Source of the DNA: a virus | IMG/VR virus record: IMGVR_UViG_3300045988_127072 | Coordinates: 1-55,096 of that record | Strand: one strand, 5' to 3' | DNA length: 55,096 nucleotides | Part shown: positions 1 through 55,096 of the stretch, piece by piece | Numbering within the stretch: position 1 is the stretch's first letter | How the letters are laid out: every line of letters starts with the position of its first letter | Translations under genes and position numbers: made by a program | Notes under the pieces: model-generated | The model's input: only the letters and a program-made list of their open reading frames with translations | Told to the model about the DNA's origin: nothing | Databases searched by the model: none

Positions 1-38
1 CTTGAAAAATATAGCGGTTTATTCAGATATTTATTACC
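1..38. repeat. terminal overlap identical to 55059..55096 (circular closure or terminal redundancy)
   Basis: cttgaaaaatatagcggtttattcagatatttattacc is present at both window ends, 38/38 identical. Confidence 0.95.
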
Positions 39-73
39 TTTGCACTGCACATGGCGTTGTGCATATCAGGATC

Positions 74-110
74 GGGTGGAACCGGCTTGTACCGGACCAC
101 CCGTTTTTTT
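74..110 (+). terminator. rho-independent terminator, plus-strand orientation
   Basis: GGGTGG aaCCGGcttgtaCCGGa CCACCC hairpin followed by g+TTTTTTT. The T-run is on the plus strand only. It lies 69 nt downstream of the cassette D stop when read across the circular junction. Confidence 0.7.
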
Positions 111-125
111 ATACCCAAGATACGG

Positions 126-142
126 TTCGCCAATCCCCCCAG
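126..142 (-). repeat. putative recombination crossover site s3 (CTGGGGGGATTGGCGAA on minus strand)
   Basis: Shares the core CTGGGGGGA-T with s1, s2 and s4. Lies 2 codons past the stop of 149..709, in the same codon phase and same orientation as s4. Confidence 0.5.
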
Positions 143-148
143 AGGGAA

Positions 149-709
149 TTAGGTAATATTTACTCCTTTAATAAGTAACCATTCTTCCCATGTTTTTCCT
201 AAGTTATATGATTTTCTCACATAAATATTTTCGGTACCATCCGATATGTAAATTTGAGCGGCACCAAATGATTTTGAACATAGGACAACTAGTACACCAT
301 ATTTATAAGCATATAAAGGCCATGTTCCCTGAACACTTTCATTCGTATTATAGATGCCATTAATGTTTGTATCAAGAGAAGCTGGATTATTATATCCTCT
401 TAAAAATCCCAAAGAATCCGGCAGAAGTCCCCCCAGTTTTGATGCAAGTGACTGCATCGTCATTTGTGCGGCATCTCCGCTACTTTGTAAAACCCTTACA
501 TTTGCGGCATCTGTCACAGTCGGAAGTTCATTTTCATACACGTCATTTCCTGTTGCAGCAGCGGCAGCAAATGTTGAAGTTTCTGACAAAGCCATAACCA
601 TTCTTGTGGAAACCATGTCCACCATCTCATCCACTGTTACATTCTGTTCGTTACCGTCTTTATCAACAGCCTTAAAACCAACAATATTGTCTAAATTCAA
701 ATCACTCAT
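149..709 (-). CDS. tail-fibre tip / receptor-binding protein, currently expressed form (constant N-terminus + C-terminal cassette A)
   Basis: 186-aa ORF, last gene of the minus-strand tail module. Residues 92-95 (LGGL) are encoded by site s4. The C-terminal ...SYNLGKTWEEW... tip motif is echoed in the plus-strand cassettes. Confidence 0.7.
   Translation of the reverse strand: MSDLNLDNIVGFKAVDKDGNEQNVTVDEMVDMVSTRMVMALSETSTFAAAAATGNDVYENELPTVTDAANVRVLQSSGDAAQMTMQSLASKLGGLLPDSLGFLRGYNNPASLDTNINGIYNTNESVQGTWPLYAYKYGVLVVLCSKSFGAAQIYISDGTENIYVRKSYNLGKTWEEWLLIKGVNIT
420..436 (-). repeat. putative recombination crossover site s4 inside the tip gene (CTGGGGGGACTTCTGCC on minus strand)
   Basis: The 11-nt core CTGGGGGGACT is identical to s1 (54343..54353) but inverted. 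CTG is codon 92 of 149..709, in phase 0. Confidence 0.65.
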
Positions 710-722
710 AATATCCTAATTT

Positions 723-1223
723 TTATAAAGTTCTAATATAATTTTTCCACACTTTTGAAGTGCCGCCAACCGATTTGTACAGCTTCTTCCTGCCACCTTT
801 TATCTTGTACCGGGAAAGATTGTTCCTGTCATAGTTAACGGGGTAATCCGGATTGTCTTCGTTGGCATACGCCTCCATTTCGTATGAGATGGTATAATAC
901 GCCGAACTCGCAGGATGGCAGATAGGGTTTCCCTTGATCCACTCGACAAAATACCGCCAGTAGTATTTTACCCATGAGCCGACAGCCTGTGCCTGACGCA
1001 AGTGTATGGTTTCGTGAGTCATACTCTCCTTACCCGCATAGGTCTGCATGTACTTCTCTATGTTCTCTTTGTTCTCAATATGGTAGATCATCCGTCCGCA
1101 CCACATCATGAAACGGTATCCCTTGAAAGGATAATGCTTCATGGCAAGCAGCTCAGGAGTGTCAAAATCACCCGGCTTGCTTGAGAACAGCATCTTGATT
1201 AATTGCCATAATTCTTTCATCAT
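723..1223 (-). CDS. HExxH-motif protein (putative metallopeptidase-like), tail-module accessory
   Basis: The ORF track extends to 1271; I prefer the ATG at 1223, which forms an ATGA overlap with the upstream stop. Contains HETIH (HExxH) followed by EMEAY. Confidence 0.6.
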   Translation of the reverse strand: MMKELWQLIKMLFSSKPGDFDTPELLAMKHYPFKGYRFMMWCGRMIYHIENKENIEKYMQTYAGKESMTHETIHLRQAQAVGSWVKYYWRYFVEWIKGNPICHPASSAYYTISYEMEAYANEDNPDYPVNYDRNNLSRYKIKGGRKKLYKSVGGTSKVWKNYIRTL

Positions 1224-1444
1224 AGCGTTTCTATTTCGTATTCTAGTTTTGTAATATGGTTGTCTATACACGTGTTCACCTCATCATTGAAGTTTGCTAT
1301 ATCCAGTTCCACACATCCGGCACTTGACCGGGCGCTGCTGTAGATACGGACATAGCCGCCGTTATTCAACGTTTCCTTCGCCAGCTTCAGTTTCGCCAGT
1401 TCGTCATTGATCCGGCTGGCGCGTTCCAAATTCTCAATTTTCAT
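1220..1444 (-). CDS. hypothetical protein (coiled-coil-like)
   Basis: ORF 1220..1477 trimmed to the internal ATG (MKIENLERAS...) to avoid a long overlap with 1434..1721. Confidence 0.55.
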   Translation of the reverse strand: MKIENLERASRINDELAKLKLAKETLNNGGYVRIYSSARSSAGCVELDIANFNDEVNTCIDNHITKLEYEIETL

Positions 1445-5272: not shown

Positions 5273-5397
5273 ATATCCTGTTCCACTTTTACCATTCCGC
5301 ATCCGGGTGCACTTCAACGGACAGACGGAACATTATTCTGATGATTAATTCTCGTATCATAAATATATGTTTTGAGTGTTACTGATAATTTTCCGGG

Positions 5398-7632
5398 TTA
5401 CTCTACCAGGGTTGTAATTTCAAAAGGGTTGCCTACAGCCGCTTTGACAGCGCGTATTATCAATGCAAAGTTCTCCTCATCTACAGGCGTACACAATTGT
5501 TCCTTGTAATCTCCCGTTCCTTGAGATATTCTATAGCTACAGTCTGCGATATCAAGATTGTATATTTTCGTCATAAACGACTGGAACAGAGTTGCCGCGA
5601 TGATATATCTTGTAATACCAAAATTCGCGTGTATGGAATCACGAGTAAAGTCATTCTTGTTCCTCCAGTTCGCCACGTTGTTCATAAACGGATAAGTATC
5701 AGAAACGGTAGTCAAATCGGTAATAGTTTCAGCCTCCTGAATAGTTGGGATTGCAGGTGAAGCGGAAGCATAATTTGTAGACTGTCTTAGTTGTGTGACA
5801 GTTCTTGCATTCTGAACCGCTGTTCCGGATGGAATGATGAATTTGACATCCGGGCAATTGGATATGCAGTCCTTGTAGTTTTTGGCAATATTACGCCACA
5901 TACCCAATTGTCTTTCCTTTTGGTTGTTTCCATAGCTTAACCATTTATCGTCATTTGCTCCACTTGGACCGTGTGACTCGGCGATTGTATGATAAATGCT
6001 GAACGCCCAAGTCATGTTCATACAGAATACAGGATTACTATAGAGACAGGCTTTTTTACACAAGTCGATCAATTCTTGTACTATGTTCCTTGTTATTTGT
6101 CCATCTTCTCCTTTTTCCCAAAAAGAGGATTGGTCCTCATAAGGGGATTGATAAGCCCCGTTTTGCATAACGATGAAGTCCCACGCTTCATCTGCCAACA
6201 ACCAGTCCATCAAGACTGTGTCATTTGCCGGTGCAGGTTCCCCTTCATCCGTTATATCAGAATCAGGCTCGCTGGACCATTTCCCTGTCGTACCGTTATA
6301 TTGTTCCCATGTCGTTGCCTGATATTTCCATTTATAATACGTAACTCCCTTATTTACTTGAAACCTTTTCAAAAAAACATCTAAAGTGGCTGCACCTATA
6401 TAAGCATTTCCCAAAATTACATTTTTGCCAAATGAAGCACAAATGTTACCCACTTCTCTGGCTGTATCCACACCGAAGGATGATCCGATAACAAGAACTT
6501 TCAGCGCTTCTTTATAGGACTGATCTTTATGTTCCATAGATTCCAACCTTTCATTCAAATCCTTGATATTGGCTTCGGTCTCATCCCTGTTTTTCTCAAC
6601 TTTCTGATCCAGTTCGGATATCTGACCTTTAAGCCCGGCCTGAATATAGGGAATACCATATATTTTTAAAGATTTCATCCATTGTTCCTGATTATCCTCT
6701 GTTATTGAAGCTATACCTATATGTAGTCCTAATACTGTAGCACCATCCGGTTTAAGATACCCCCTGTCCTTTCCTGATGTTCCACTTACCGTAGCAATAA
6801 TCCGGTTGCCATCAGAGCCAAAGAATTTCCATGTTCCCATGAAAATATTTGCATCTTCCGCATTTTTCAGATAAAGAAGTGTACCGTTCTCTATGCTGGA
6901 TACATCAATCCTGCTATAAGCGTTATTTGTGGCATTGGAGATAGGATTGTCTCCCAACGTATTACCCACATAAGCATGTTTGAGCGATATTTCAAGAGTA
7001 TTGCAAGGCAAATAAGGCAATTCCACACCTTCCGAAAGAGACTTGAGTTCATTTGATGTGTTATTTGCAATCTCCTTGGCCTCTTCTGCTATTTCTTTGG
7101 ATTTGTTTATTTCTGTATAGGTTTCTTGTACATAATCAATTACAGGCTTATAATACAATCCCAGAATACTATATCCGGGAACGGCATTTATCTTTTCGGT
7201 TGAAGCATGTATATACATATATTTCGCAGTACCTTGAACCTGTATTTGATACCCACTATCAGCGTATCCTGATTCAACATGATCACCTTCGGCATTTGTA
7301 AACTTAACAACCAAGCCCAAATCGGCAAGTCTGACTTGATTGTGATTGGTATCTATGACACTTATCACAAATCCAGCTGGTATATCAACGTCTAGAGCTT
7401 GTTTAAATCTTAAGTAACCTTCTGTGGAATTAGGATAAATAGATTGTCCCGTACCTACCCATTGTCCGATTTCAAAATCAGATAATTTAAAAACATATCC
7501 ATTGATTTCAACTTCTAATTCGGAAAGTTCTGCTGTAAGATTTTTGCGGCTGTTCGGATTAACCACCGCATCGGTTGTGGTTGCCGGGTAAATGGTTTGA
7601 CCACCTTTGGTCAGCTTATATATTTTTGCCAT
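5398..7632 (-). CDS. tail fibre/spike with C-terminal SGNH/GDSL-type esterase-like domain (DUF4886-like)
   Basis: 744 aa. Fibre-like N-terminus MAKIYKLTKGGQTIYPATTTDAV, a coiled-coil middle, and a C-terminal half with VIGSSFG (block I Ser), MQNGA and RDSIHAN (DxxH block V). Confidence 0.7.
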   Translation of the reverse strand: MAKIYKLTKGGQTIYPATTTDAVVNPNSRKNLTAELSELEVEINGYVFKLSDFEIGQWVGTGQSIYPNSTEGYLRFKQALDVDIPAGFVISVIDTNHNQVRLADLGLVVKFTNAEGDHVESGYADSGYQIQVQGTAKYMYIHASTEKINAVPGYSILGLYYKPVIDYVQETYTEINKSKEIAEEAKEIANNTSNELKSLSEGVELPYLPCNTLEISLKHAYVGNTLGDNPISNATNNAYSRIDVSSIENGTLLYLKNAEDANIFMGTWKFFGSDGNRIIATVSGTSGKDRGYLKPDGATVLGLHIGIASITEDNQEQWMKSLKIYGIPYIQAGLKGQISELDQKVEKNRDETEANIKDLNERLESMEHKDQSYKEALKVLVIGSSFGVDTAREVGNICASFGKNVILGNAYIGAATLDVFLKRFQVNKGVTYYKWKYQATTWEQYNGTTGKWSSEPDSDITDEGEPAPANDTVLMDWLLADEAWDFIVMQNGAYQSPYEDQSSFWEKGEDGQITRNIVQELIDLCKKACLYSNPVFCMNMTWAFSIYHTIAESHGPSGANDDKWLSYGNNQKERQLGMWRNIAKNYKDCISNCPDVKFIIPSGTAVQNARTVTQLRQSTNYASASPAIPTIQEAETITDLTTVSDTYPFMNNVANWRNKNDFTRDSIHANFGITRYIIAATLFQSFMTKIYNLDIADCSYRISQGTGDYKEQLCTPVDEENFALIIRAVKAAVGNPFEITTLVE

Positions 7633-7642
7633 AATAAATCTC

Positions 7643-8122
7643 CTATATTTCTAGATTAGTAACTGTTTCTTCTTCCTCTTCCGGTGGCAAAGGAGGTACA
7701 AAATCACTCAGCACATCTTCATATTCATTATCCGACAATGGGAACGCCTGAATTGTATTATATGCGGCATAATCGGGATAAGATGTTATTTCCACCGTGC
7801 TTTCATCGGTTTTCCCGGTAGTCAGTACGATTTCTGTATCTTCAACGGAAACAAGGTTGCAGATGCCATCCTGAAAGTCGGAATCGGATATGAAGTATTC
7901 ACGTTTTACCTTCAGCATACCAGGAGAAAAACAGGGATTGTCGAAAGCGACAAGCAGGTTGCCGTCTTCCATGCGGCTGCAACCGACATACTCATGCCCG
8001 TCAAAGGAGGCTATGAACTTTCCCTTGAACGGATTGAAGTAAGTAAACCGGAAAGGAGTATTCACATCCCCGTTCAAGTTCTTCTCTATGATCTTAAAAT
8101 CGGACTGATAATTGATTCTCAT
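7643..8122 (-). CDS. hypothetical tail-associated protein, acidic C-terminus
   Basis: 159-aa ORF between fibre genes; ends PPLPPEEEEETV. Confidence 0.6.
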   Translation of the reverse strand: MRINYQSDFKIIEKNLNGDVNTPFRFTYFNPFKGKFIASFDGHEYVGCSRMEDGNLLVAFDNPCFSPGMLKVKREYFISDSDFQDGICNLVSVEDTEIVLTTGKTDESTVEITSYPDYAAYNTIQAFPLSDNEYEDVLSDFVPPLPPEEEEETVTNLEI

Positions 8123-8124
8123 AA

Positions 8125-8460
8125 CTATATTGATGTTACATCGTCTATCTCCTCGGCTGTCAGGTAGCTGGATAAGTCAACACTTCCGCCACCTCCTGTC
8201 GTGCCAGTGGCACTCCATGTTCCCTTTGTCTTGCATTGATATATAGGGCCCGGTATGGTGTCACCCACAACAGCCCAGTCACCTACAACAGGAGATGGAA
8301 CAGCCGCTTTCAGTGATTCAAGAGTAGGGAACAACCCCTTGTTGCGGATGCCGTTCTGCTTGACTTTTTCCACTTCGGTAGAAGTCTTGCTAAAGTTGTT
8401 GTTAAGACGGTCTGCCGCCTCACTCCAAGTTCCTGTTTTGTTAATAGTATTCAGTTCCAT
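8125..8460 (-). CDS. short fibre-like protein sharing the N-terminal anchor module with 1736..5272
   Basis: MELNTINKTGTWSEAADRLNNNFSKTSTEVEKVKQNG is about 80 percent identical to the N-terminus of the 1178-aa fibre. Confidence 0.65.
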   Translation of the reverse strand: MELNTINKTGTWSEAADRLNNNFSKTSTEVEKVKQNGIRNKGLFPTLESLKAAVPSPVVGDWAVVGDTIPGPIYQCKTKGTWSATGTTGGGGSVDLSSYLTAEEIDDVTSI

Positions 8461-8471
8461 ATCACTTCACT

Positions 8472-10811
8472 TTATTTGGGCAACATGTTCTGATCCCATA
8501 CAATCTCAGAACCTTTAACCATAATTATGCGTCCTCCCATTATCTGGGTCTGATATATATAACCGTCACTTCCTTTTTGCTCGACAACCATACTATCCGG
8601 GCGGAAATATAATCTATCACTGCTAGAAGGATCGAACATGGAAATACTGGGAATCATCCCTCCAAGTCCGTACTGTAGGGAGATACTGAACAGTTCTTCT
8701 CCATTATAATCATACATTCTGATAGACGGTACGGAATACTCATCCTCAGGGGATATTACGATCTTGTAACCATTGGATGATATGACATTGACAGTACCAC
8801 TAAACTCTCCCTCTCCTTTTATCCAGATATTGCCATCCTCATCAATTTTAAAATTGCCGTTAGGTGACTTTACATTTTTAAAGATTCCGCTTTCCGCATT
8901 GACTTCCCCTCTGAACTTACCACCTAGAGCATAGATATATCCTCTCAAAAACACATCACCGCCATGAGTCGCAACAAAGTTCGCCATGTTCGCCCATTCC
9001 GCATCCGTAGGCTGGTAATCGGGGTTATTACGGAACCTCATTACGGTCAGAATCGCCTGTTCAAGTTTTCCTCCTGCCCAGAATGCCACATCATCATCGT
9101 CATTGTATATGCCGCTAACTCCGGCTGTGACCTTCTGTAACTTGCCATTCTTGTAGTTGCCTAACTGGATCATATTGGCAAGAATCAGACCACCAAGAAT
9201 ATCCACAGATCCATCCTTGATCGCACTGGCGATATAATTGATTGACTGGAAACCGGCTGTTGCCTTGTCGTTGTCAAGAATTGAAGGCTTCCAGTCAGTA
9301 GCGATGGTTCCACGCTCTAGCTGAAGGTCACAAACGGTTGCGGTACCACTGATAAGAAATATACCACTGCCATTGAAGGTGATCTTATGGGTATATCTCT
9401 GATAAGAGGATGTGAGAGGTTGAGAAACACTGAAAGAACCGCACGAAACAGACACAGACGTACCCTTTGCTTTATAACTGATAACATAACTTTCTCCTTT
9501 AATCAATGATACGGACTGGGACAAACTACCGATTGCGGCAGAGTACCCGGAGCCGGCATCACTGTCCGCAGATACGGTAGCCACACCCGTCCAATATTCC
9601 AGTTGCTTGCTAAAAAGTTCGGTATCCGCCGATAGCTCGGTAGCGGCAGACAGGTCCTCTGTCTCATAATCTCCCGTAAATCCGGAATTGCGCAACAGAT
9701 TGACACTTCCGACAGCCGCATTGTCTATCGCATCCTTGGCCTCTTGGGCAAGATCTGCGGCCGCCTGTATCTCATCCGGCAAGCCTTCCATATTCTTCCA
9801 TCCGGTGGAGCCTTTTTCGATATGGAACATACCCTTGATATCAACACCTTTATCCTGAGTGTATTCCATGTAAGTGGTCCGGTCCTTGTCACCAATATAC
9901 GTATCTCCGTACACCTTCATCCGGGCCTTGCCGGTAGACCTGTCAAAATCAAAAGATATAACGTCTTTCCCGGTCAAGGTAAAATCATTAATACCCTGAT
10001 ACATGATGATAGACGGAGAAACTTCGTTCACCGAAGAGAGAATTATCGCCGCCTGTCTGGTGATATCAGTCTTATGGCCCAATCCCACGATATCATCACC
10101 TGCCACCGGAACATCGTTCTCGACATTAGGATCACACACGGTCTTGGACAGGTCTATATAATTCTCACCTACTGCTGTGACCAACCGCCAGTAATAGCGG
10201 TTGCCGACATGATGCGAAATGCCTGTCTTGATATTGCACTCCTGTGCGATGGCGAGAGATCCCGGAGTAAACTGGTTCTCTATCTCAATTCCGTCTTCCT
10301 CTTCCTTGAAATAACAACGGTAGACATCATCCAACTCATCCACACGGTTGCATTTCATGCCTGCATGGGAAATCACCTGCTCACCACCTACATACGTCTT
10401 CTTCTTTACTTCAAGCTCGTCAAAAACGGCTTTGACCTTGACATACAGATAATCAACAACAGCCTGTGACATACCGTTCTCAAGTACAGTGATTCCACTA
10501 CCGTTCTTACCAATCAAAAGACCTTTTAAAAAAGTGATCAGCTCATTGGCGATATCTTCTTTATCTTTACGAAGGAAGTATTTGGAAAGTTCCTCTATAT
10601 TTGCACTTCCCGATATGGCAACAACCCGGTCTTTATTGGTCCTTATGTAAATAGAAGGATTCTTATCATCATTATGTATGTATATCTCACCCTCATTCAA
10701 CCCTTCCAATCGCTTTTCAAATGATGGGGATATTTTCGGTATAATCGGATTTCCTTCTGCATCCGTTTCCGAACCGTACCACAATATCTTTATAGGATGA
10801 TTTCTAGCCAT
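8472..10811 (-). CDS. tail fibre/baseplate protein with jelly-roll carbohydrate-binding-like central domain
   Basis: 779 aa. Central LLRNSGFTGDYE...LERGTIATDWKPS resembles galactose-binding-like phage tail domains. Call also rests on position in the tail module. Confidence 0.6.
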   Translation of the reverse strand: MARNHPIKILWYGSETDAEGNPIIPKISPSFEKRLEGLNEGEIYIHNDDKNPSIYIRTNKDRVVAISGSANIEELSKYFLRKDKEDIANELITFLKGLLIGKNGSGITVLENGMSQAVVDYLYVKVKAVFDELEVKKKTYVGGEQVISHAGMKCNRVDELDDVYRCYFKEEEDGIEIENQFTPGSLAIAQECNIKTGISHHVGNRYYWRLVTAVGENYIDLSKTVCDPNVENDVPVAGDDIVGLGHKTDITRQAAIILSSVNEVSPSIIMYQGINDFTLTGKDVISFDFDRSTGKARMKVYGDTYIGDKDRTTYMEYTQDKGVDIKGMFHIEKGSTGWKNMEGLPDEIQAAADLAQEAKDAIDNAAVGSVNLLRNSGFTGDYETEDLSAATELSADTELFSKQLEYWTGVATVSADSDAGSGYSAAIGSLSQSVSLIKGESYVISYKAKGTSVSVSCGSFSVSQPLTSSYQRYTHKITFNGSGIFLISGTATVCDLQLERGTIATDWKPSILDNDKATAGFQSINYIASAIKDGSVDILGGLILANMIQLGNYKNGKLQKVTAGVSGIYNDDDDVAFWAGGKLEQAILTVMRFRNNPDYQPTDAEWANMANFVATHGGDVFLRGYIYALGGKFRGEVNAESGIFKNVKSPNGNFKIDEDGNIWIKGEGEFSGTVNVISSNGYKIVISPEDEYSVPSIRMYDYNGEELFSISLQYGLGGMIPSISMFDPSSSDRLYFRPDSMVVEQKGSDGYIYQTQIMGGRIIMVKGSEIVWDQNMLPK

Positions 10812-29063: not shown

Positions 29064-29274
29064 CGGAAAATATGAATAAAACAAAAAAAAACATACCATT
29101 TAATTCCTGTACCCTAAAAGTGCCCTAAATTCATTGCTAAAATTCAAGTTTAAGCTCATTCATAGGATTAACTTTCTTTTTTCCACCTTTCGCTTTCCGA
29201 TATACATCGTCAATCAATTATTTAAGCTCGTTGATGTAGCTTTCAAGGGATGTTGCAGGCATCCCTTTCTCTTT

Positions 29275-29544
29275 TTAAAACCTGCCATTTCTATCTACCA
29301 TTCTCTTTTCAGCATCAGTGGCTTGTCTTTTGGGAAATTTCCCATGCCACTTCCCCGGTATCATACGCGGATTTTCCCCTTTACTGTCAAATATCAATCT
29401 CCCACACTCCGAGCACAACGGTTTTCCTTCAAACTCCTTTATGCTTGCATCATACTCTATGGGAAAGATTTTATGTACAACAGGCCAATAATCCGATGTG
29501 GCTGTATTCTCAACACAACCACATTTGCTACAAGGCATAATCAA
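29275..29544 (-). CDS. zinc-ribbon protein
   Basis: CSKCGC...CSECG cysteine pairs. Preferred over the antisense 163-aa plus ORF. Confidence 0.6.
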   Translation of the reverse strand: MIMPCSKCGCVENTATSDYWPVVHKIFPIEYDASIKEFEGKPLCSECGRLIFDSKGENPRMIPGKWHGKFPKRQATDAEKRMVDRNGRF

Positions 29545-29691
29545 TATCTTTTTCCGTTCAACATATGTCTTAATTCATTGTATCTTATCTTCTGTTCGAT
29601 ATGCCAAAGCAAATCTACGCCATAGTCTTCCGACCATCCAATACCGCTTGGGTTAATCCTAATTTATCGTTGAAAAATATCTTCTTCATAA

Positions 29692-33331: not shown

Positions 33332-34357
33332 TTATTTCTTATTCTTTTTTTCATCAGTTTTGAATTTTTTTTTCACAACTACCGCCATTGTACTAACAGA
33401 AGTGCCACTCTCTTTAAACTTGCCTGCGCTGATTTCAAACAGTTCTCCATGTACTTCTTTCAGCCAGTTGCGGAAATCAATACATATCTTTTCCGAAGCG
33501 AATCTCCAGTGTTGGCTGGTTATTGCTGCAAGGGTTCCACCTTGTTCCAATCGATCATACATAAGCCTGACATGCTCTATATCCTGATTACCGGAAAACG
33601 GAGGATTTGCAATTATCTTAGTATAACTACCTACACTGTCTTTGGTAAAGTCTTCATCAAGCAATATTACGTTGTTAAGGGTGTGAAGATATTCTCTGTT
33701 TTCCGGCATCAGTTCATAACATTCAACCATTACAGAAGGACAAGCCCGGTGGATTGCTTTTACAAGCGCGCCACGCCCGGCACTCGGCTCCAGTACCGTA
33801 TCATCCTCATGTATCCCTCCGGCAAGCATAACCAGCCAGTCAGCAACATCGGCCGGAGTTTCAAAAAACTGGTAATCCTGCTGTAGGTTGCACCGTTTAC
33901 CCTCTTTCAGTATGGAACACACACGTTCCGGATTAAACGGGAATGTGAAACCCTGTATCTTCCCACCTTGCCATGAGCCGCCGGCTTCTTCTATCCACTT
34001 TTTTGCTTCGGCATAAGATTTTTTATTGAATTGAACTTGAGGAAGTTTGAGGATATTGTTCTCAAGAGTACAATGTTTCAGTATTTCTTCCACATTCCAT
34101 TTCTTACCTTCATCAGCAAGTTTTTTCTTTTCGTCCATTGGAGCATCCGGCGCTAACAGTGAAGATATTTTTTGAATAACTATGTTGCTTGCGTCCATGA
34201 AGGCACTGACGCAAGATATCGCTTCTATCAAAAAATCAGTGTCAACACACCCGGCCTCGTCATAGATGTCTATCCCTTCGGTCATGGATGACAGTTCATT
34301 GAGCTGCGCTACACTACCATGTAACGTTTCGATTAAAATCTTTTTTTTGTTCGTCAT
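33332..34357 (-). CDS. N6-adenine DNA methyltransferase (orphan)
   Basis: Motif I VLEPSAGRGALV and motif IV IANPPFSG. No cognate nuclease is visible. Confidence 0.7.
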   Translation of the reverse strand: MTNKKKILIETLHGSVAQLNELSSMTEGIDIYDEAGCVDTDFLIEAISCVSAFMDASNIVIQKISSLLAPDAPMDEKKKLADEGKKWNVEEILKHCTLENNILKLPQVQFNKKSYAEAKKWIEEAGGSWQGGKIQGFTFPFNPERVCSILKEGKRCNLQQDYQFFETPADVADWLVMLAGGIHEDDTVLEPSAGRGALVKAIHRACPSVMVECYELMPENREYLHTLNNVILLDEDFTKDSVGSYTKIIANPPFSGNQDIEHVRLMYDRLEQGGTLAAITSQHWRFASEKICIDFRNWLKEVHGELFEISAGKFKESGTSVSTMAVVVKKKFKTDEKKNKK

Positions 34358-35420
34358 AGCTTTTCTGTAAATAAATTCTAGTTGTGTCTACACTCCCGTG
34401 ACCTAGAAGGTCAGCCAGTTGAATAACATCTTTGTTTTTTTTCAGGAACATTTTAGCAAAGAAATGCCGGAAGGCGTGCGCGTGCATTTTCCTTGGATCA
34501 ATGCCGCAATGTTTTCCCCATGCTTTCAAGTGCTGGGAAAAGCCACGCTGTGTGATCGGGCCGAATCTCCCTACCGCAAAAATCCCGGTTTTACCATATT
34601 CTTTAGCGTAAACCTTCGCTTCCTGCTGAATTGTTTTTTGGAAGAAAAAACGTCTGTACTTGTTACCCTTTCCTTTTAATACTACTTCCCCGGATATGAT
34701 GTCTTCCCACGTAAACTGTTGGAATTCCGACAGACGGGCACCCGTTGTACCCAAAACCTTAATAAAGAAATAGTAATCCTTATTGTTTTTTGCCTTGAGA
34801 TATTCCAACAGCCGGTTATATTCCTCCTCGGTCGGCACATTGTTCACATCAAGCTTGCGCTTTATTTTGGGACGCTTCAGTTCTATAGGCTTCTTCAGCC
34901 ATTTGGAAAATCTTTCGATCGCTGTAATTCGCAAACGGATGGTAGCGGGAGATAATTTTTCTTCTTCAAGACTTTTTATAAACCTCCTGCAATTATCCAT
35001 GTTTACCTCATTGGCGTATTCGAAATACTTTTTCATGGATGTGTAATATATATAAACTGTATGAGAAGAGTAATCATTGTTGTCAGTCAGCCATATAATG
35101 AAATCATTAAGTTGTTTCTTGTTCTTATCCGAAATGACATCAAGTTTTTCCAAAGGTTTCACCGCCTTTCCCCTTTTTCCATATCCGATGTTGAGATAGG
35201 ATAATAGATCGCATATAGCTGAACACATTAGCGAATGACGCACCATGACATCTGCATTTTCACGCTTATAAACCAGATAGCCACGACGATTGACATCTTC
35301 AGTACGTTCAAGAAAATCCGTTACATATTTGATATATTTCCCGACAGTATCATAAGTTCTGCCTGTTGTGTATAAGTAGGAAATATAATCAGTTAATATC
35401 TTCTGCCTGTCATTATTCAT
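34314..35420 (-). CDS. tyrosine recombinase (integrase/invertase family)
   Basis: TGARLSEF (Arg), HAFRHFF (HxxR), LLGHGSVDTTRIYL (His...Tyr), plus an N-terminal SAM-like core-binding region. Overlaps both neighbouring genes, so there is no adjacent intergenic attP. Confidence 0.85.
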   Translation of the reverse strand: MNNDRQKILTDYISYLYTTGRTYDTVGKYIKYVTDFLERTEDVNRRGYLVYKRENADVMVRHSLMCSAICDLLSYLNIGYGKRGKAVKPLEKLDVISDKNKKQLNDFIIWLTDNNDYSSHTVYIYYTSMKKYFEYANEVNMDNCRRFIKSLEEEKLSPATIRLRITAIERFSKWLKKPIELKRPKIKRKLDVNNVPTEEEYNRLLEYLKAKNNKDYYFFIKVLGTTGARLSEFQQFTWEDIISGEVVLKGKGNKYRRFFFQKTIQQEAKVYAKEYGKTGIFAVGRFGPITQRGFSQHLKAWGKHCGIDPRKMHAHAFRHFFAKMFLKKNKDVIQLADLLGHGSVDTTRIYLQKSYDEQKKDFNRNVTW

Positions 35421-35808
35421 AATCTTGTTTAATTAAATTATACCAATCATTGCTATCTTCGAAAAAACATCTGTATCCATTAGCCGTATGTTTGCCTCTC
35501 ACTTTCCGACATATAGCACTGATCAAAGAAGGAGCCACGCCAATCATCTTACCAGCCGTTTGTATCGAAGGGAATACTCCACATAATTTCTCATCCTTTA
35601 TCAAAACAACGCTCTTTTTATTCATGCCTGCACCAGTCTTATGCCAAGCCCCACGTCCTTTAGACAGATTTTTTATACTTCTGGCCTTGGAACGTTTTGA
35701 ATGATAAACCATTTTACGACCCTTGTTGCGAGAAACACAACCTTTTAAAAATCGTCCGGTAATTAAGTCTCTCTCAAATCGCTCAGGCGGTATATATAAT
35801 TCACTCAT
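35413..35808 (-). CDS. basic DNA-binding-like protein (NUMOD-type HTH resemblance)
   Basis: FPSIQTAGKMIGVAPSLISAICRK...ANGYRCFFE resembles the DNA-binding modules of homing endonucleases. No nuclease motif is seen. Confidence 0.35.
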   Translation of the reverse strand: MSELYIPPERFERDLITGRFLKGCVSRNKGRKMVYHSKRSKARSIKNLSKGRGAWHKTGAGMNKKSVVLIKDEKLCGVFPSIQTAGKMIGVAPSLISAICRKVRGKHTANGYRCFFEDSNDWYNLIKQDYE

Positions 35809-35830
35809 TTCTATTTTCGTTTTTAGTTAA

Positions 35831-53115: not shown

Positions 53116-53147
53116 AAAAAAAATAACCGACAATTAACGCCGGTTAT
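53116..53147 (-). terminator. rho-independent terminator overlapping the stop of 53134..53421
   Basis: Minus strand reads ATAACCG gcgttaattgt CGGTTAT followed by TTTTTTTT. Confidence 0.55.
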
Positions 53148-53421
53148 CGTGATAGTATCTTATAGCCTCATTGACATATAATGATACTGATTGCTCCTTA
53201 TCCAAGATAGCAGCTACATCCTCCTCTATCATAACAAGTATTCTTTTCACGCCATTAACCTTCGGTCTTCGGGGCACACCATTGCTGTCCAATATCCTAT
53301 ATATCGTTTGCTCAGACTTTATATCTGTTTCCTTCATTATCTCCTTAATAGCCATCCCGTCCTTATATAGGGACAATACCCTAGACTCTTGATCTAGGGT
53401 AATAGATCGTCCTCTTGCCAT
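53134..53421 (-). CDS. transcriptional regulator: resolvase-type HTH + ribbon-helix-helix-like C-terminus (no catalytic domain)
   Basis: ITLDQESRVLSLYKDGMAIKEIMKETDIKSEQTIYRIL (HTH_7-like), then KRILVMIEEDVAAILDKEQSVSLYVNEAIRYY (CopG-like). Confidence 0.6.
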   Translation of the reverse strand: MARGRSITLDQESRVLSLYKDGMAIKEIMKETDIKSEQTIYRILDSNGVPRRPKVNGVKRILVMIEEDVAAILDKEQSVSLYVNEAIRYYHDNRR

Positions 53422-53932: not shown

Positions 53933-54316
53933 TTATAATTTAATTTGATTTTCTATCGCGAATTTAGCAAGGCAAGTAGCCTGTTTCTCTGAACACTTCA
54001 TGAACTTAATAACAGATTCACAAATCGATGCAATAAAATCGTTACCAAGTTCTCTTGCTTTCAATTCGATACCTGCCATCATATCATAGCTAATCTGGTA
54101 ACTCATTGATGTTCTGTCTCCATAAACACAACCATTAATCCACATCATCTTACTGGCAACTTCCTCAATCGGGTTTAATTGCTTAGATGCGCTTTTTCTA
54201 GTTTTATAAACTTTCTGCTTCGGCATGGAATCTATATCTTCAACCACAACTTCTTTTTTCGCAAACATCTTAACCTTTCCCTTAGAGTCTTTACAGATAA
54301 AAAAATTCTTCTGCAT
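53933..54316 (-). CDS. hypothetical protein adjacent to the invertible region
   Basis: 127-aa ORF. Its start codon is 27 nt from site s1. Confidence 0.6.
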   Translation of the reverse strand: MQKNFFICKDSKGKVKMFAKKEVVVEDIDSMPKQKVYKTRKSASKQLNPIEEVASKMMWINGCVYGDRTSMSYQISYDMMAGIELKARELGNDFIASICESVIKFMKCSEKQATCLAKFAIENQIKL

Positions 54317-54327
54317 TTACAAAATAA

Positions 54328-54615
54328 ACCACAAAAATTGTTCTGGGGGGACTGATAGGGATTGCCTCATGCATTAAGGATAAAAGAATGAAGACAGTGG
54401 ATGCTAATGAAGCCCCAATGAATGAATTTATTTTTGCATATATTGGTTCTACCAATTTACCTACAGATTCTTCACCGGGAGGTCTATTGACATTGGGATT
54501 TATGGACGGATCGAGTAGTTGTAAACTTCAGTTTTTTTTCCGACACGATAATGTATTTAAACGTATACAATGGTATAACAATTGGCAAAATTGGACTAAA
54601 ATCTTAACAGAATAA
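54328..54615 (+). CDS. silent alternative C-terminal cassette C of the tail-tip protein
   Basis: The frame is open from 54328 through s1 (…VLGGLIGIASC…) into the track ORF 54388..54615. Ends ...RIQWYNNWQNWTKILTE, resembling the cassette A tip. Opposite strand to all neighbours. Confidence 0.6.
   Translation, partial: TTKIVLGGLIGIASCIKDKRMKTVDANEAPMNEFIFAYIGSTNLPTDSSPGGLLTLGFMDGSSSCKLQFFFRHDNVFKRIQWYNNWQNWTKILTE
54343..54359 (+). repeat. putative recombination crossover site s1 (CTGGGGGGACTGATAGG)
   Basis: 11-nt core identical to s4 but inverted; 15/17 identical to s2. In frame with cassette C. Confidence 0.65.
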
Positions 54616-55063
54616 AGTCCATGATACCGAGCTGGGGGAACTGATCGGTACGGCTACGAGAGAAAAAACAGGCTTGAGCGATAGTATACAAGCCTTAAAC
54701 TCTACGTTTTATAGCATTTCTAGCGGATCAAAGAATGCTACTTTGTTTAAAGTTTGTGATTATGGCAAAAATATTCTCCATCGATTATATATCTATAGTG
54801 CACCTAATGGTACATCGGATACTTGCAGATATATTCGTGTGATCCTCTCAGACAATAATATATTTGCAAATATGTTGTTGGCAAAGGGAGGGAGTAATAT
54901 CAGACTTTTTAAAGATGAAACAAGTTTTTATGTTTACACTTATAACGGTACGTGGTCGAGGTCTAATATTGAGGTTTTTGCAAATGAACCTCATCGCTTT
55001 TATTTCACAGACGTGACAGATCAAATCAGTATATCAGATTTGGAAGAAATCTCTATATCTTGA
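54608..55063 (+). CDS. silent alternative C-terminal cassette D of the tail-tip protein
   Basis: The frame is open from 54608 through s2 (…ELGELIGTATREKTG…) into the track ORF 54674..55063, whose listed start is a TTG. Contains ...YVYTYNGTWSRSNI... Confidence 0.6.
   Translation, partial: QNKVHDTELGELIGTATREKTGLSDSIQALNSTFYSISSGSKNATLFKVCDYGKNILHRLYIYSAPNGTSDTCRYIRVILSDNNIFANMLLAKGGSNIRLFKDETSFYVYTYNGTWSRSNIEVFANEPHRFYFTDVTDQISISDLEEISIS
54632..54648 (+). repeat. putative recombination crossover site s2 (CTGGGGGAACTGATCGG)
   Basis: Same core with one G-to-A change. In frame with cassette D. Confidence 0.6.
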
Positions 55064-55096
55064 AAAATATAGCGGTTTATTCAGATATTTATTACC
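55059..55096. repeat. terminal overlap identical to 1..38
   Basis: 38/38 identity with the window start. The stop codon of cassette D lies inside it. Confidence 0.95.

Follow-up and report, generated by a model that had tools for sequence, protein, structure and literature searches.

In phages Mu (Gin acting on G) and P1 (Cin acting on C) and in p15B (Min), tail-fibre C-termini are exchanged by serine invertases that act on symmetric sites of about 26 bp and depend on a Fis-bound enhancer; the Min system of p15B is a multi-site one. The R64/IncI1 shufflon uses the tyrosine recombinase Rci, which acts on asymmetric sfx sites with one conserved side and gives inversions only, without deletions. 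Its target pilV, a constant N-terminus with alternative C-termini, encodes an adhesin of the conjugative pilus and not a phage tail protein. Here we analysed a tail-fibre tip gene and the array of short repeated sites around it in the virus record IMGVR_UViG_3300045988_127072 of IMG/VR, the whole 55,096 nucleotides of which are referred to below as the window. We consider it probable that this locus is a multi-site DNA inversion shufflon of the BV01-like family that swaps the receptor-binding domain at the tail-fibre tip, that it has lost its recombinase, and that it is most likely static on one tip, tip A, as long as no recombinase reaches it in trans. With Mu, P1 and p15B it would share the switching of host range by exchange of tail-fibre C-termini, but the window has no Resolvase domain, no symmetric sites of about 26 bp and no Fis-dependent enhancer. 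In function it would resemble the R64 shufflon too. It differs from the latter in having no adjacent recombinase, and the sfx sites are unrelated to its core.

According to a preprint posted on Research Square on 16 September 2026, BV01-like (Salyersviridae) phages of Phocaeicola vulgatus have an active shufflon with several cassettes (PMC13596623). That shufflon has a flanking recombinase, overlaps the tail-fibre gene at its distal end and contains directional TGGGAGAACT motifs, and all of its configurations were detected in reads (PMC13596623). BV01 itself carries three PF00589 genes, and integration was assigned to the one beside attP (PMC8354205). In the isolate P. vulgatus ATCC 8482 (contig L193) we found seven TGGGAGAACT/TGGGAGGACT sites, the same upstream HExxH gene as in the window, a D-like cassette, and a constant part that is 56% identical to that of the window over residues 1-99. 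These shared elements indicate that the window and BV01 systems are homologous. The likeness lies in a nearly identical core (TGGGAGAACT versus CTGGGGGRACT here), in the 3' end of the tail-fibre gene as the target and, in the relatives of the window, in a flanking tyrosine recombinase. In contrast, the gene for this flanking recombinase is deleted in the window, the cassette set is a different one, and the backbone and tail genes differ from those of BV01, with one PF00589 gene instead of three. The window phage is a gut Bacteroidaceae phage with a shufflon of a type already known from BV01-like phages, and the first-pass annotation of this DNA, which had considered the system not obviously described for Bacteroidota phages, has been overtaken by the read-verified report of a homologous one. 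A scan of genome contigs with the single tail-tip protein found no relatives, and a profile scan found only L193. INPHARED, a collection without BV01, gave no match to the 2.4-kb junction region in distant-mode blastn and none to the tail-tip protein in tblastn.

In architecture, the nearest analogue is the Rin shufflon of Bifidobacterium prophages, which was described as having a constant receptor-binding protein (RBP) gene with variable cassettes, a rix site that is asymmetric and 11 bp long, and an invertase of the tyrosine type (Mavrich et al. 2018, PMC6109161). A second inverted bifidophage locus in the same study has no flanking recombinase, and action in trans was proposed for it (PMC6109161). 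Rin and the family of the window share a constant RBP N-terminus, a short 11-bp site ahead of every cassette, and an invertase of the tyrosine family where the array ends. However, the rix site (TTCCCTAACCC) is unrelated to the window core, Rin has no arm-binding domain whereas the Bacteroidaceae enzyme has Arm-DNA-bind_5, and the host phylum and the RBP family are different.

The window carries a 38-nucleotide exact repeat at its two ends and therefore closes into a circle. Across the circular junction an 11-nucleotide core, CTGGGRGRAYT, is present in four copies, all within about 1.25 kb. When up to one mismatch is allowed, the whole 55-kb window contains 4 matches, compared to 0.28 expected by chance, and none of 100 shuffled sequences gave 4. 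The sites and the segments that they delimit are the following.

437..709, minus strand: constant N-terminal segment (codons 1-91) of the tail-fibre tip gene 149..709, which is the last of the late genes
426-436, minus strand: core site s4, CTGGGGGGACT; lies at codon 92 of 149..709, encodes L-G-G-L and joins the constant part to tip A
149..425, minus strand: cassette A, the expressed tip in the window arrangement (95 amino acids including the site codons)
132-142, minus strand: core site s3, CTGGGGGGATT; directly past the stop of 149..709 and in direct orientation to s4
54343-54353, plus strand: core site s1, CTGGGGGGACT; heads cassette C
54343..54615, plus strand: cassette C, silent and inverted (90 amino acids)
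54632-54642, plus strand: core site s2, CTGGGGGAACT; heads cassette D
54632..55063, plus strand: cassette D, silent and inverted (143 amino acids)

Sites s1, s2 and s4 lie exactly where the first-pass annotation had placed them, and s3 is a fourth copy that it did not describe. It had also claimed that CTG sits in codon phase 0 and that the site encodes L-G-G/E-L in every copy; our frame check agrees, and this holds for all four cores. From the site to the stop the frames are open for 95 (A), 90 (C) and 143 (D) amino acids; the frame behind s3, called B, is only 39 amino acids long and tip-less. Read in the direction of the tail gene, with const for the constant part, the order is const-s4(+)-A-s3(+)-B, followed by D-s2(-)-C-s1(-). 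The core variants of the window (CTGGGGGGACT, CTGGGGGAACT and CTGGGGGGATT) are 1-3 nucleotides off the published 10-mer TGGGAGAACT, and all four sites fit the consensus of the family given below. The two silent cassettes were thought to be the only sizeable plus-strand open reading frames (ORFs) of this genome, which is not so, as 29134..29625 (plus strand, 163 amino acids) is another; it occupies a gap among minus-strand genes. A tRNA scan and an Rfam scan of the window gave no matches.

The first-pass annotation had predicted that inversion would fuse the 91-amino-acid constant part in frame to C or to D, and both products exist in near-identical contigs. Locus L037 is collinear with the window from 1220 to 426 (97.4% identity) and then continues with inverted window sequence from 54632 to 141 (98.1%). 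The two alignments overlap inside the 11-nucleotide core, and the product is const-D, followed by B in the opposite orientation. The const-C join is seen in the same manner in L053 and L038, and the homology breakpoints of L037, L053, L038 and L080 all overlap the 11 nucleotides of s4. At the protein level, the const-D fusion P0124 has the predicted 234 amino acids, with D 100% identical, and is present in 24 contigs; at least 15 further const-D proteins of 234 amino acids show 96-100% identity, and another const-D fusion, P0190, occurs in P. vulgatus genomes. The const-C fusion P0240 has the predicted 181 amino acids, P0239 is also const-C, and in P0238 cassette C is attached to another, short N-terminus. 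Comparison of homologous genomes for cassettes in alternative orientations, a check proposed with the original prediction, gave reciprocal arrangements in L037, L053, L038, L005 and L020, and in the last two tip A is silent behind C. Tip A also appears silent behind unrelated upstream sequence in proteins P0048, P0064, P0066, P0068 and P0092; this upstream part is meaningless, which fits silent copies that had been annotated as ORFs.

The tail-tip protein has 2,122 database relatives and 130 in viral contigs, most of which are 96-100% identical to it up to about residue 95, from residue 1 on, and lose this identity beyond. The same is seen in 80 viral loci, where the constant part is 96-100% conserved and the sequence past residue ~95 varies. 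The constant part is joined at LGG/EL to many unrelated C-termini, such as those of P0084, P0118, P0079, P0011 and P0040. A census over 112 fetched loci (0.99 Mb) counted 284 cores, present in arrays of 2-12 sites that span 0.7-4.3 kb, with the family consensus CTGGG-R-G-R-A-C-T-n-n-T. The site is asymmetric, as its flanks are unrelated, and the sequence logo is an asymmetric conserved block of about 14-16 nucleotides. Among the commonest variants is CTGGGAGAACT (82 of the 284 sites); the 'ATT' core variant, to which s3 belongs, accounts for 14 of 284 and, in the loci listed, goes with the B element.

In these arrays a run of '+' sites is followed by a run of '-' sites, and not one of the 34 loci with both orientations that were tested had them interleaved. 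This invariant is what would be expected if only oppositely oriented sites recombine, by inversion, since inverting a segment with a '+' and b '-' sites gives b '+' sites and then a '-' sites. Three P. vulgatus prophages (L081, L082 and L083), with 8-11 sites each, contain the same left and right flanks in new pairings; in L081 and L082 the flanks are near-identical and the recombinases are 99.75% identical. Moreover, 31 of 80 contigs end 7-119 nucleotides beyond the constant part, many of them at 55, 77 or 99, which are typical assembler k-mers, and this indicates that the assembly graph branches at the core. Such breaks at the core imply that mixed arrangements are present within samples. 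Two positions of the core behave differently from each other. Position 5 (A or G) is near-uniform per array and mixed in 4 of 51 loci, a sign of homogenisation perhaps. At position 7, by comparison, 36 of 51 arrays are mixed, and even flank pairs that are identical can have different letters there; this position may therefore lie in or beside the strand-exchange region.

The pool of cassettes is common to different backbones, including a small Mu-like element. This element, of about 7 kb, was seen in a Bacteroidaceae chromosome (L084-L086) and has an rve transposase, AAA_22, an S78 prohead protease and a capsid gene. It encodes a protein of 127-133 amino acids (P0020, P0039 and P0238) in which another N-terminus, of 38 amino acids, is joined at LGG/EL to tip A or C. 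These features suggest a satellite-like element that uses the same pool of tips.

A tyrosine recombinase of about 410 amino acids is encoded directly past the array in 25 of the 29 informative loci, which are those with at least 3 kb of downstream sequence, and its gene starts within about 100 nucleotides of the last '-' site. According to precomputed Pfam annotation it has the domains Arm-DNA-bind_5, Phage_int_SAM_5 and Phage_integrase. These recombinases fall mainly into two groups that are about 61% identical to each other, and the same core is found with both. The window has no gene for this ~410-amino-acid recombinase; the best match to it in the window, 34314..35420, shows 22% identity (E = 2e-5). 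Window positions 54353-54287 match the last site and the recombinase leader of L037, L020 and L078, and this homology stops at 54287-54290. Positions 54306-53931 match the dn127 gene (present in L087-L090), which in L090 is located downstream of the recombinase. Both homologies overlap in ATTTTTTTA (54298-54306), a 9-nucleotide microhomology, and the recombinase gene is apparently absent because it was deleted there. Two features mark the junction.

54287..54342, minus strand: remnant comprising the leader and first codons of the lost shufflon recombinase, recognised by homology to L037, L020 and L078
53933..54316, minus strand: fusion ORF of 127 amino acids, with the start and first residues from the recombinase leader and the rest from the downstream gene

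The order in L090 is array, recombinase, intergenic element and then a homologue of the downstream gene with a different N-terminus (MKAIKIKNSIFEVTGERGD-FFICKD...). An independent scaffold from the European Nucleotide Archive, L194 of sample SAMEA3665095, is 99.8% identical to the window over 12,561 nucleotides and has the same deletion junction and the same arrangement of the array, so an assembly artefact is an unlikely cause of the deletion. Another sample gave L195, which matches the window at 100% identity over 6.7 kb and has the order const-A-B. L194 was assembled unbroken through the array, unlike many contigs of the recombinase-positive relatives. The L194 junction was located via the tail-tip protein. 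An exact-pattern search of viral contigs and metagenome contigs for the deletion junction found none, nor did an exact-protein look-up of the 127-amino-acid fusion ORF, for which the gene caller in L194 took a downstream start (111 amino acids). L080, which has a single site and a fixed D-like tip, also has no recombinase, so loss of switching recurs.

At the centre of the array lies an element, B, that looks non-coding and is conserved in many loci.

33..131, features on the plus strand: central B element, conserved in either orientation

On the plus strand it has a Bacteroides -7-box-like TAccTTTG at 35-42, a hairpin TGCACA-N6-TGTGCA at 46-63, for which two loci have the compensatory variant ATACAT/ATGTAT, and a GC-rich hairpin at 73-103 followed by T7 at 104-110. 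The predicted fold has -28.7 kcal/mol (z = -3.0); the nested B hairpin was not picked up by a consensus terminator scan. In 34 of 34 loci the GC hairpin has the last '+' site on one side and the first '-' site on the other, and the T-run points along the tail operon in 21 of these and against it in 13. Because every inversion spans the centre of the array, each one must also turn B around. Most simply, B would be a terminator at the place where the cassettes converge; it could also be the gene of a small RNA or an accessory site that binds protein. In many relatives the s3-type core next to B is degenerate, so that a const-B state, which would give a tip-less protein, may be real or not. A paralogous copy of B with a different terminator hairpin was seen in L090 at 5330-5470, past the recombinase gene.

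A more speculative idea, to which we give a rather low probability, is that B is an architectural accessory site, with for instance arm-type sites for the Arm-DNA-bind_5 domain of the recombinase, and that the window is an orphan array using the recombinases of co-resident phages. If this were true, a synapsis that needs B between the partner cores would let only '+/-' pairs recombine, and arrays of up to 12 sites would therefore invert and never delete. The flipping hairpin, T-run and promoter-like box could then also make read-through into the recombinase gene depend on the state of the array.

The tips themselves point to a role in receptor binding. In an AlphaFold2 model of const-A, based on an alignment of 43 sequences, the tip is a small beta-sandwich with a predicted local distance difference test (pLDDT) score of 83-92 from about residue 110, and the constant part, modelled as a monomer, is rich in helices and has low confidence. 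The best matches of tip A in the PDB are a baseplate chain of phage phi812 (E = 1.3e-3) and, over 83 columns with a root mean square deviation of 2.9 A, the receptor-binding region at the C-terminus of the R2 pyocin fibre, and the matches in BFVD are mostly tail-fibre, BppU and minor-tail proteins. These matches are weak but consistent with a fold like that of tail-fibre and baseplate receptor-binding domains, and the tips may well bind a receptor. Tips of about 95 amino acids are about 20-35% identical in the tip region and have invariant G118, Q152, R165 and W177, so that they form one divergent domain family; C fits into it, and D is longer and of a different type. The Y-N-x-W motif that the first-pass annotation had seen in all three tips is better described as a family-wide pattern, G..Y / Q / (Y)IR / W..W, of the ~95-amino-acid tips, to which D does not belong. 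The cassettes retain open frames, and the ratio of nonsynonymous to synonymous substitution rates (dN/dS) between copies is 0.3-0.9.

In the mechanism that we propose, the constant N-terminus of 91 amino acids ends at the asymmetric core, and each cassette opens with the same core in the same phase. A dedicated tyrosine recombinase of about 410 amino acids would recombine a '+' core with a '-' core, which would invert the DNA between them and set another cassette in frame behind the constant part. As only inversions would occur, the array would stay '+...+ -...-' around a central terminator-like element that flips with each event. In the window, tip A would be expressed and C and D would be silent, and the deletion at the 9-nucleotide microhomology would have removed the recombinase gene and fused its leader to the next gene. 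With the gene gone, the array is most likely static on tip A unless a co-resident prophage provides a compatible recombinase.

That such a supply keeps the array active is the alternative that we take most seriously, even if we judge it to be clearly the less probable state of affairs. A BV01-like or L037-like prophage in the same cell, using the same core, would provide the cognate recombinase in trans. Cross-recognition is plausible, as recombinases that are only 61% identical use the same core consensus, all four sites of the window match this consensus, related prophages are common in P. vulgatus, and a trans-acting invertase was proposed for the recombinase-less inverted locus of bifidophages (PMC6109161). 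However, the three near-identical recombinase-less assemblies share one arrangement, and L194 was assembled through the array without a break, whereas breaks occur in 31 of 80 contigs of the relatives. Another candidate for the enzyme is encoded in the window itself, about 19 kb away.

34314..35420, minus strand: Xer-like tyrosine integrase of 368 amino acids, the sole recombinase of the window (Pfam Phage_integrase and SAM_1)

The first-pass annotation had tentatively suggested this protein. It was right that this is the only recombinase (a Pfam scan of the 64 ORFs of the window found one Phage_integrase and no Resolvase) and that it is, like the cognate enzyme, of the tyrosine type; as the catalyst of the inversions we think it very improbable, since the relatives have the dedicated recombinase. 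Apart from its 22% identity to the array-adjacent recombinase, it has a different N-terminal domain, Phage_int_SAM_1 in place of Arm-DNA-bind_5 and Phage_int_SAM_5. It lies within 6 kb of the array in none of the 80 viral loci that bear the constant part, compared to 25 of 29 with the dedicated recombinase adjacent. Its best NCBIfam similarities are to XerA, XerC and XerD, all under the cut-off. The block around it (33353-35812), part of a mosaic early region, shows 95-100% conservation across at least 80 viral contigs, with 282 relatives found, which resembles a lysogeny or resolution function, and the integration of BV01 belongs to a separate integrase beside attP (PMC8354205). Upstream of the Xer-like integrase, several contigs break off at a distance of no more than about 1 kb; their ends, considered as a possible attP or prophage end, fall in this mosaic region.

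Two further explanations would do away with a tyrosine shufflon altogether. LGG/EL could be no more than a module boundary at which tips are swapped by homologous recombination, without any site-specific inversion, and the plus-strand ORFs would then be paralogues or remnants. The sharing of cassettes between different backbones, down to the small Mu-like element, and a conserved stretch of only 11-14 nucleotides would agree with this. We nevertheless regard it as highly improbable, because one genome contains inverted cassettes without promoter and start, each with an in-phase core, and because reciprocal arrangements are found in genomes that are otherwise 97-99% identical. The '+...+ -...-' invariant, the assembly breaks at the core, the adjacent recombinase and the read-level junction counts for BV01-like phages (PMC13596623) argue in the same direction. 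Least probable of all, to the point that we give it practically no credence, is a serine-invertase system of the Gin/Cin/Min type. The logic of a constant tail-fibre N-terminus with invertible C-terminal cassettes is the same, but the first-pass annotation had already stated that no serine invertase is encoded, and the Pfam scan of the 64 ORFs bears this out. The only trace is an isolated HTH_7 protein.

53134..53421, minus strand: HTH_7 protein of 95 amino acids, a resolvase-type helix-turn-helix without catalytic domain (PHROG 1303, 'DNA binding protein')

The sites are also asymmetric 11-14-mers and not gix- or cix-like sites of about 26 bp with dyad symmetry, and the relatives carry a tyrosine recombinase. 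The HTH_7 protein is kept downstream of the array or of the recombinase in relatives (L083 and L194).

Several points weigh against a shufflon locked on tip A and have to be set beside this evidence. The window genome is known from assemblies, and a static array is suggested by three near-identical ones (the window, L194 and L195). Metagenomic contigs near shufflons can be chimeric, as is probable for L060, L073, L087 and L088. Catalysis by the adjacent recombinase is suggested by synteny, and this enzyme falls below the cut-off of every curated NCBIfam invertase family. As for the tips, the fold matches are weak, with template modelling (TM) scores of about 0.35-0.4, the const-D model is unusable (pLDDT 37), and the dN/dS of the cassettes is only moderately under 1.

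Some unusual arrangements were seen among the fetched loci. In L060 and L073 (~6000-9700) two convergent tail-tip genes, one with a constant part of the window type and one of the BV01 type, share one array without a recombinase between them. These are probably assembly chimeras that arose via cassettes shared by two co-resident phages, although they may be a double-ended shufflon. In L087 and L088 a tail-fibre gene is joined to the dn127 gene. We rejected both pairs as new architectures, because they are without support and are probable chimeras or deletions. Three contigs join dn127 to different left partners, which are either the tail-fibre gene, at window ~4684 or at ~5291, or the leader of the recombinase; the joins, at 5986-6008 in L087, at ~5730-6002 in L088 and at 54298-54306 in the window, fall within about 25 nucleotides of one and the same point. 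This join point could be a recombination-prone spot, or assembly chimeras could explain it.

One neighbouring gene accompanies the tail-tip gene.

723..1271, minus strand: HExxH protein (HETIH) of 182 amino acids, directly upstream of the tail-tip gene (PHROG 15610, 'protease', E = 2.9e-12)

It is 77-99% identical and adjoins the constant part in most loci, and it is also present in the BV01-host contig L193. It may serve in the processing or the assembly of the tip protein.

Compared to the preprint on BV01-like phages, what is new here is the size of the family (at least 2,100 proteins), the site logo, the arrays of 2-12 sites, and the pool of cassettes that extends across backbones. The strict '+...+ -...-' geometry and the conserved central element are also new, as are the natural recombinase-less derivatives, among them the window genome, from which the cognate recombinase has been lost. 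Such derivatives would be built-in 'locked' controls for studying how the tip relates to recognition of the host surface. Bacteroidaceae use DNA inversion to vary capsules and surface proteins, and a phage shufflon that swaps tips would be the matching counter-strategy. The swapping of tips would also bear on the prediction of host range and on the design of phage therapy for gut Bacteroides and Phocaeicola.

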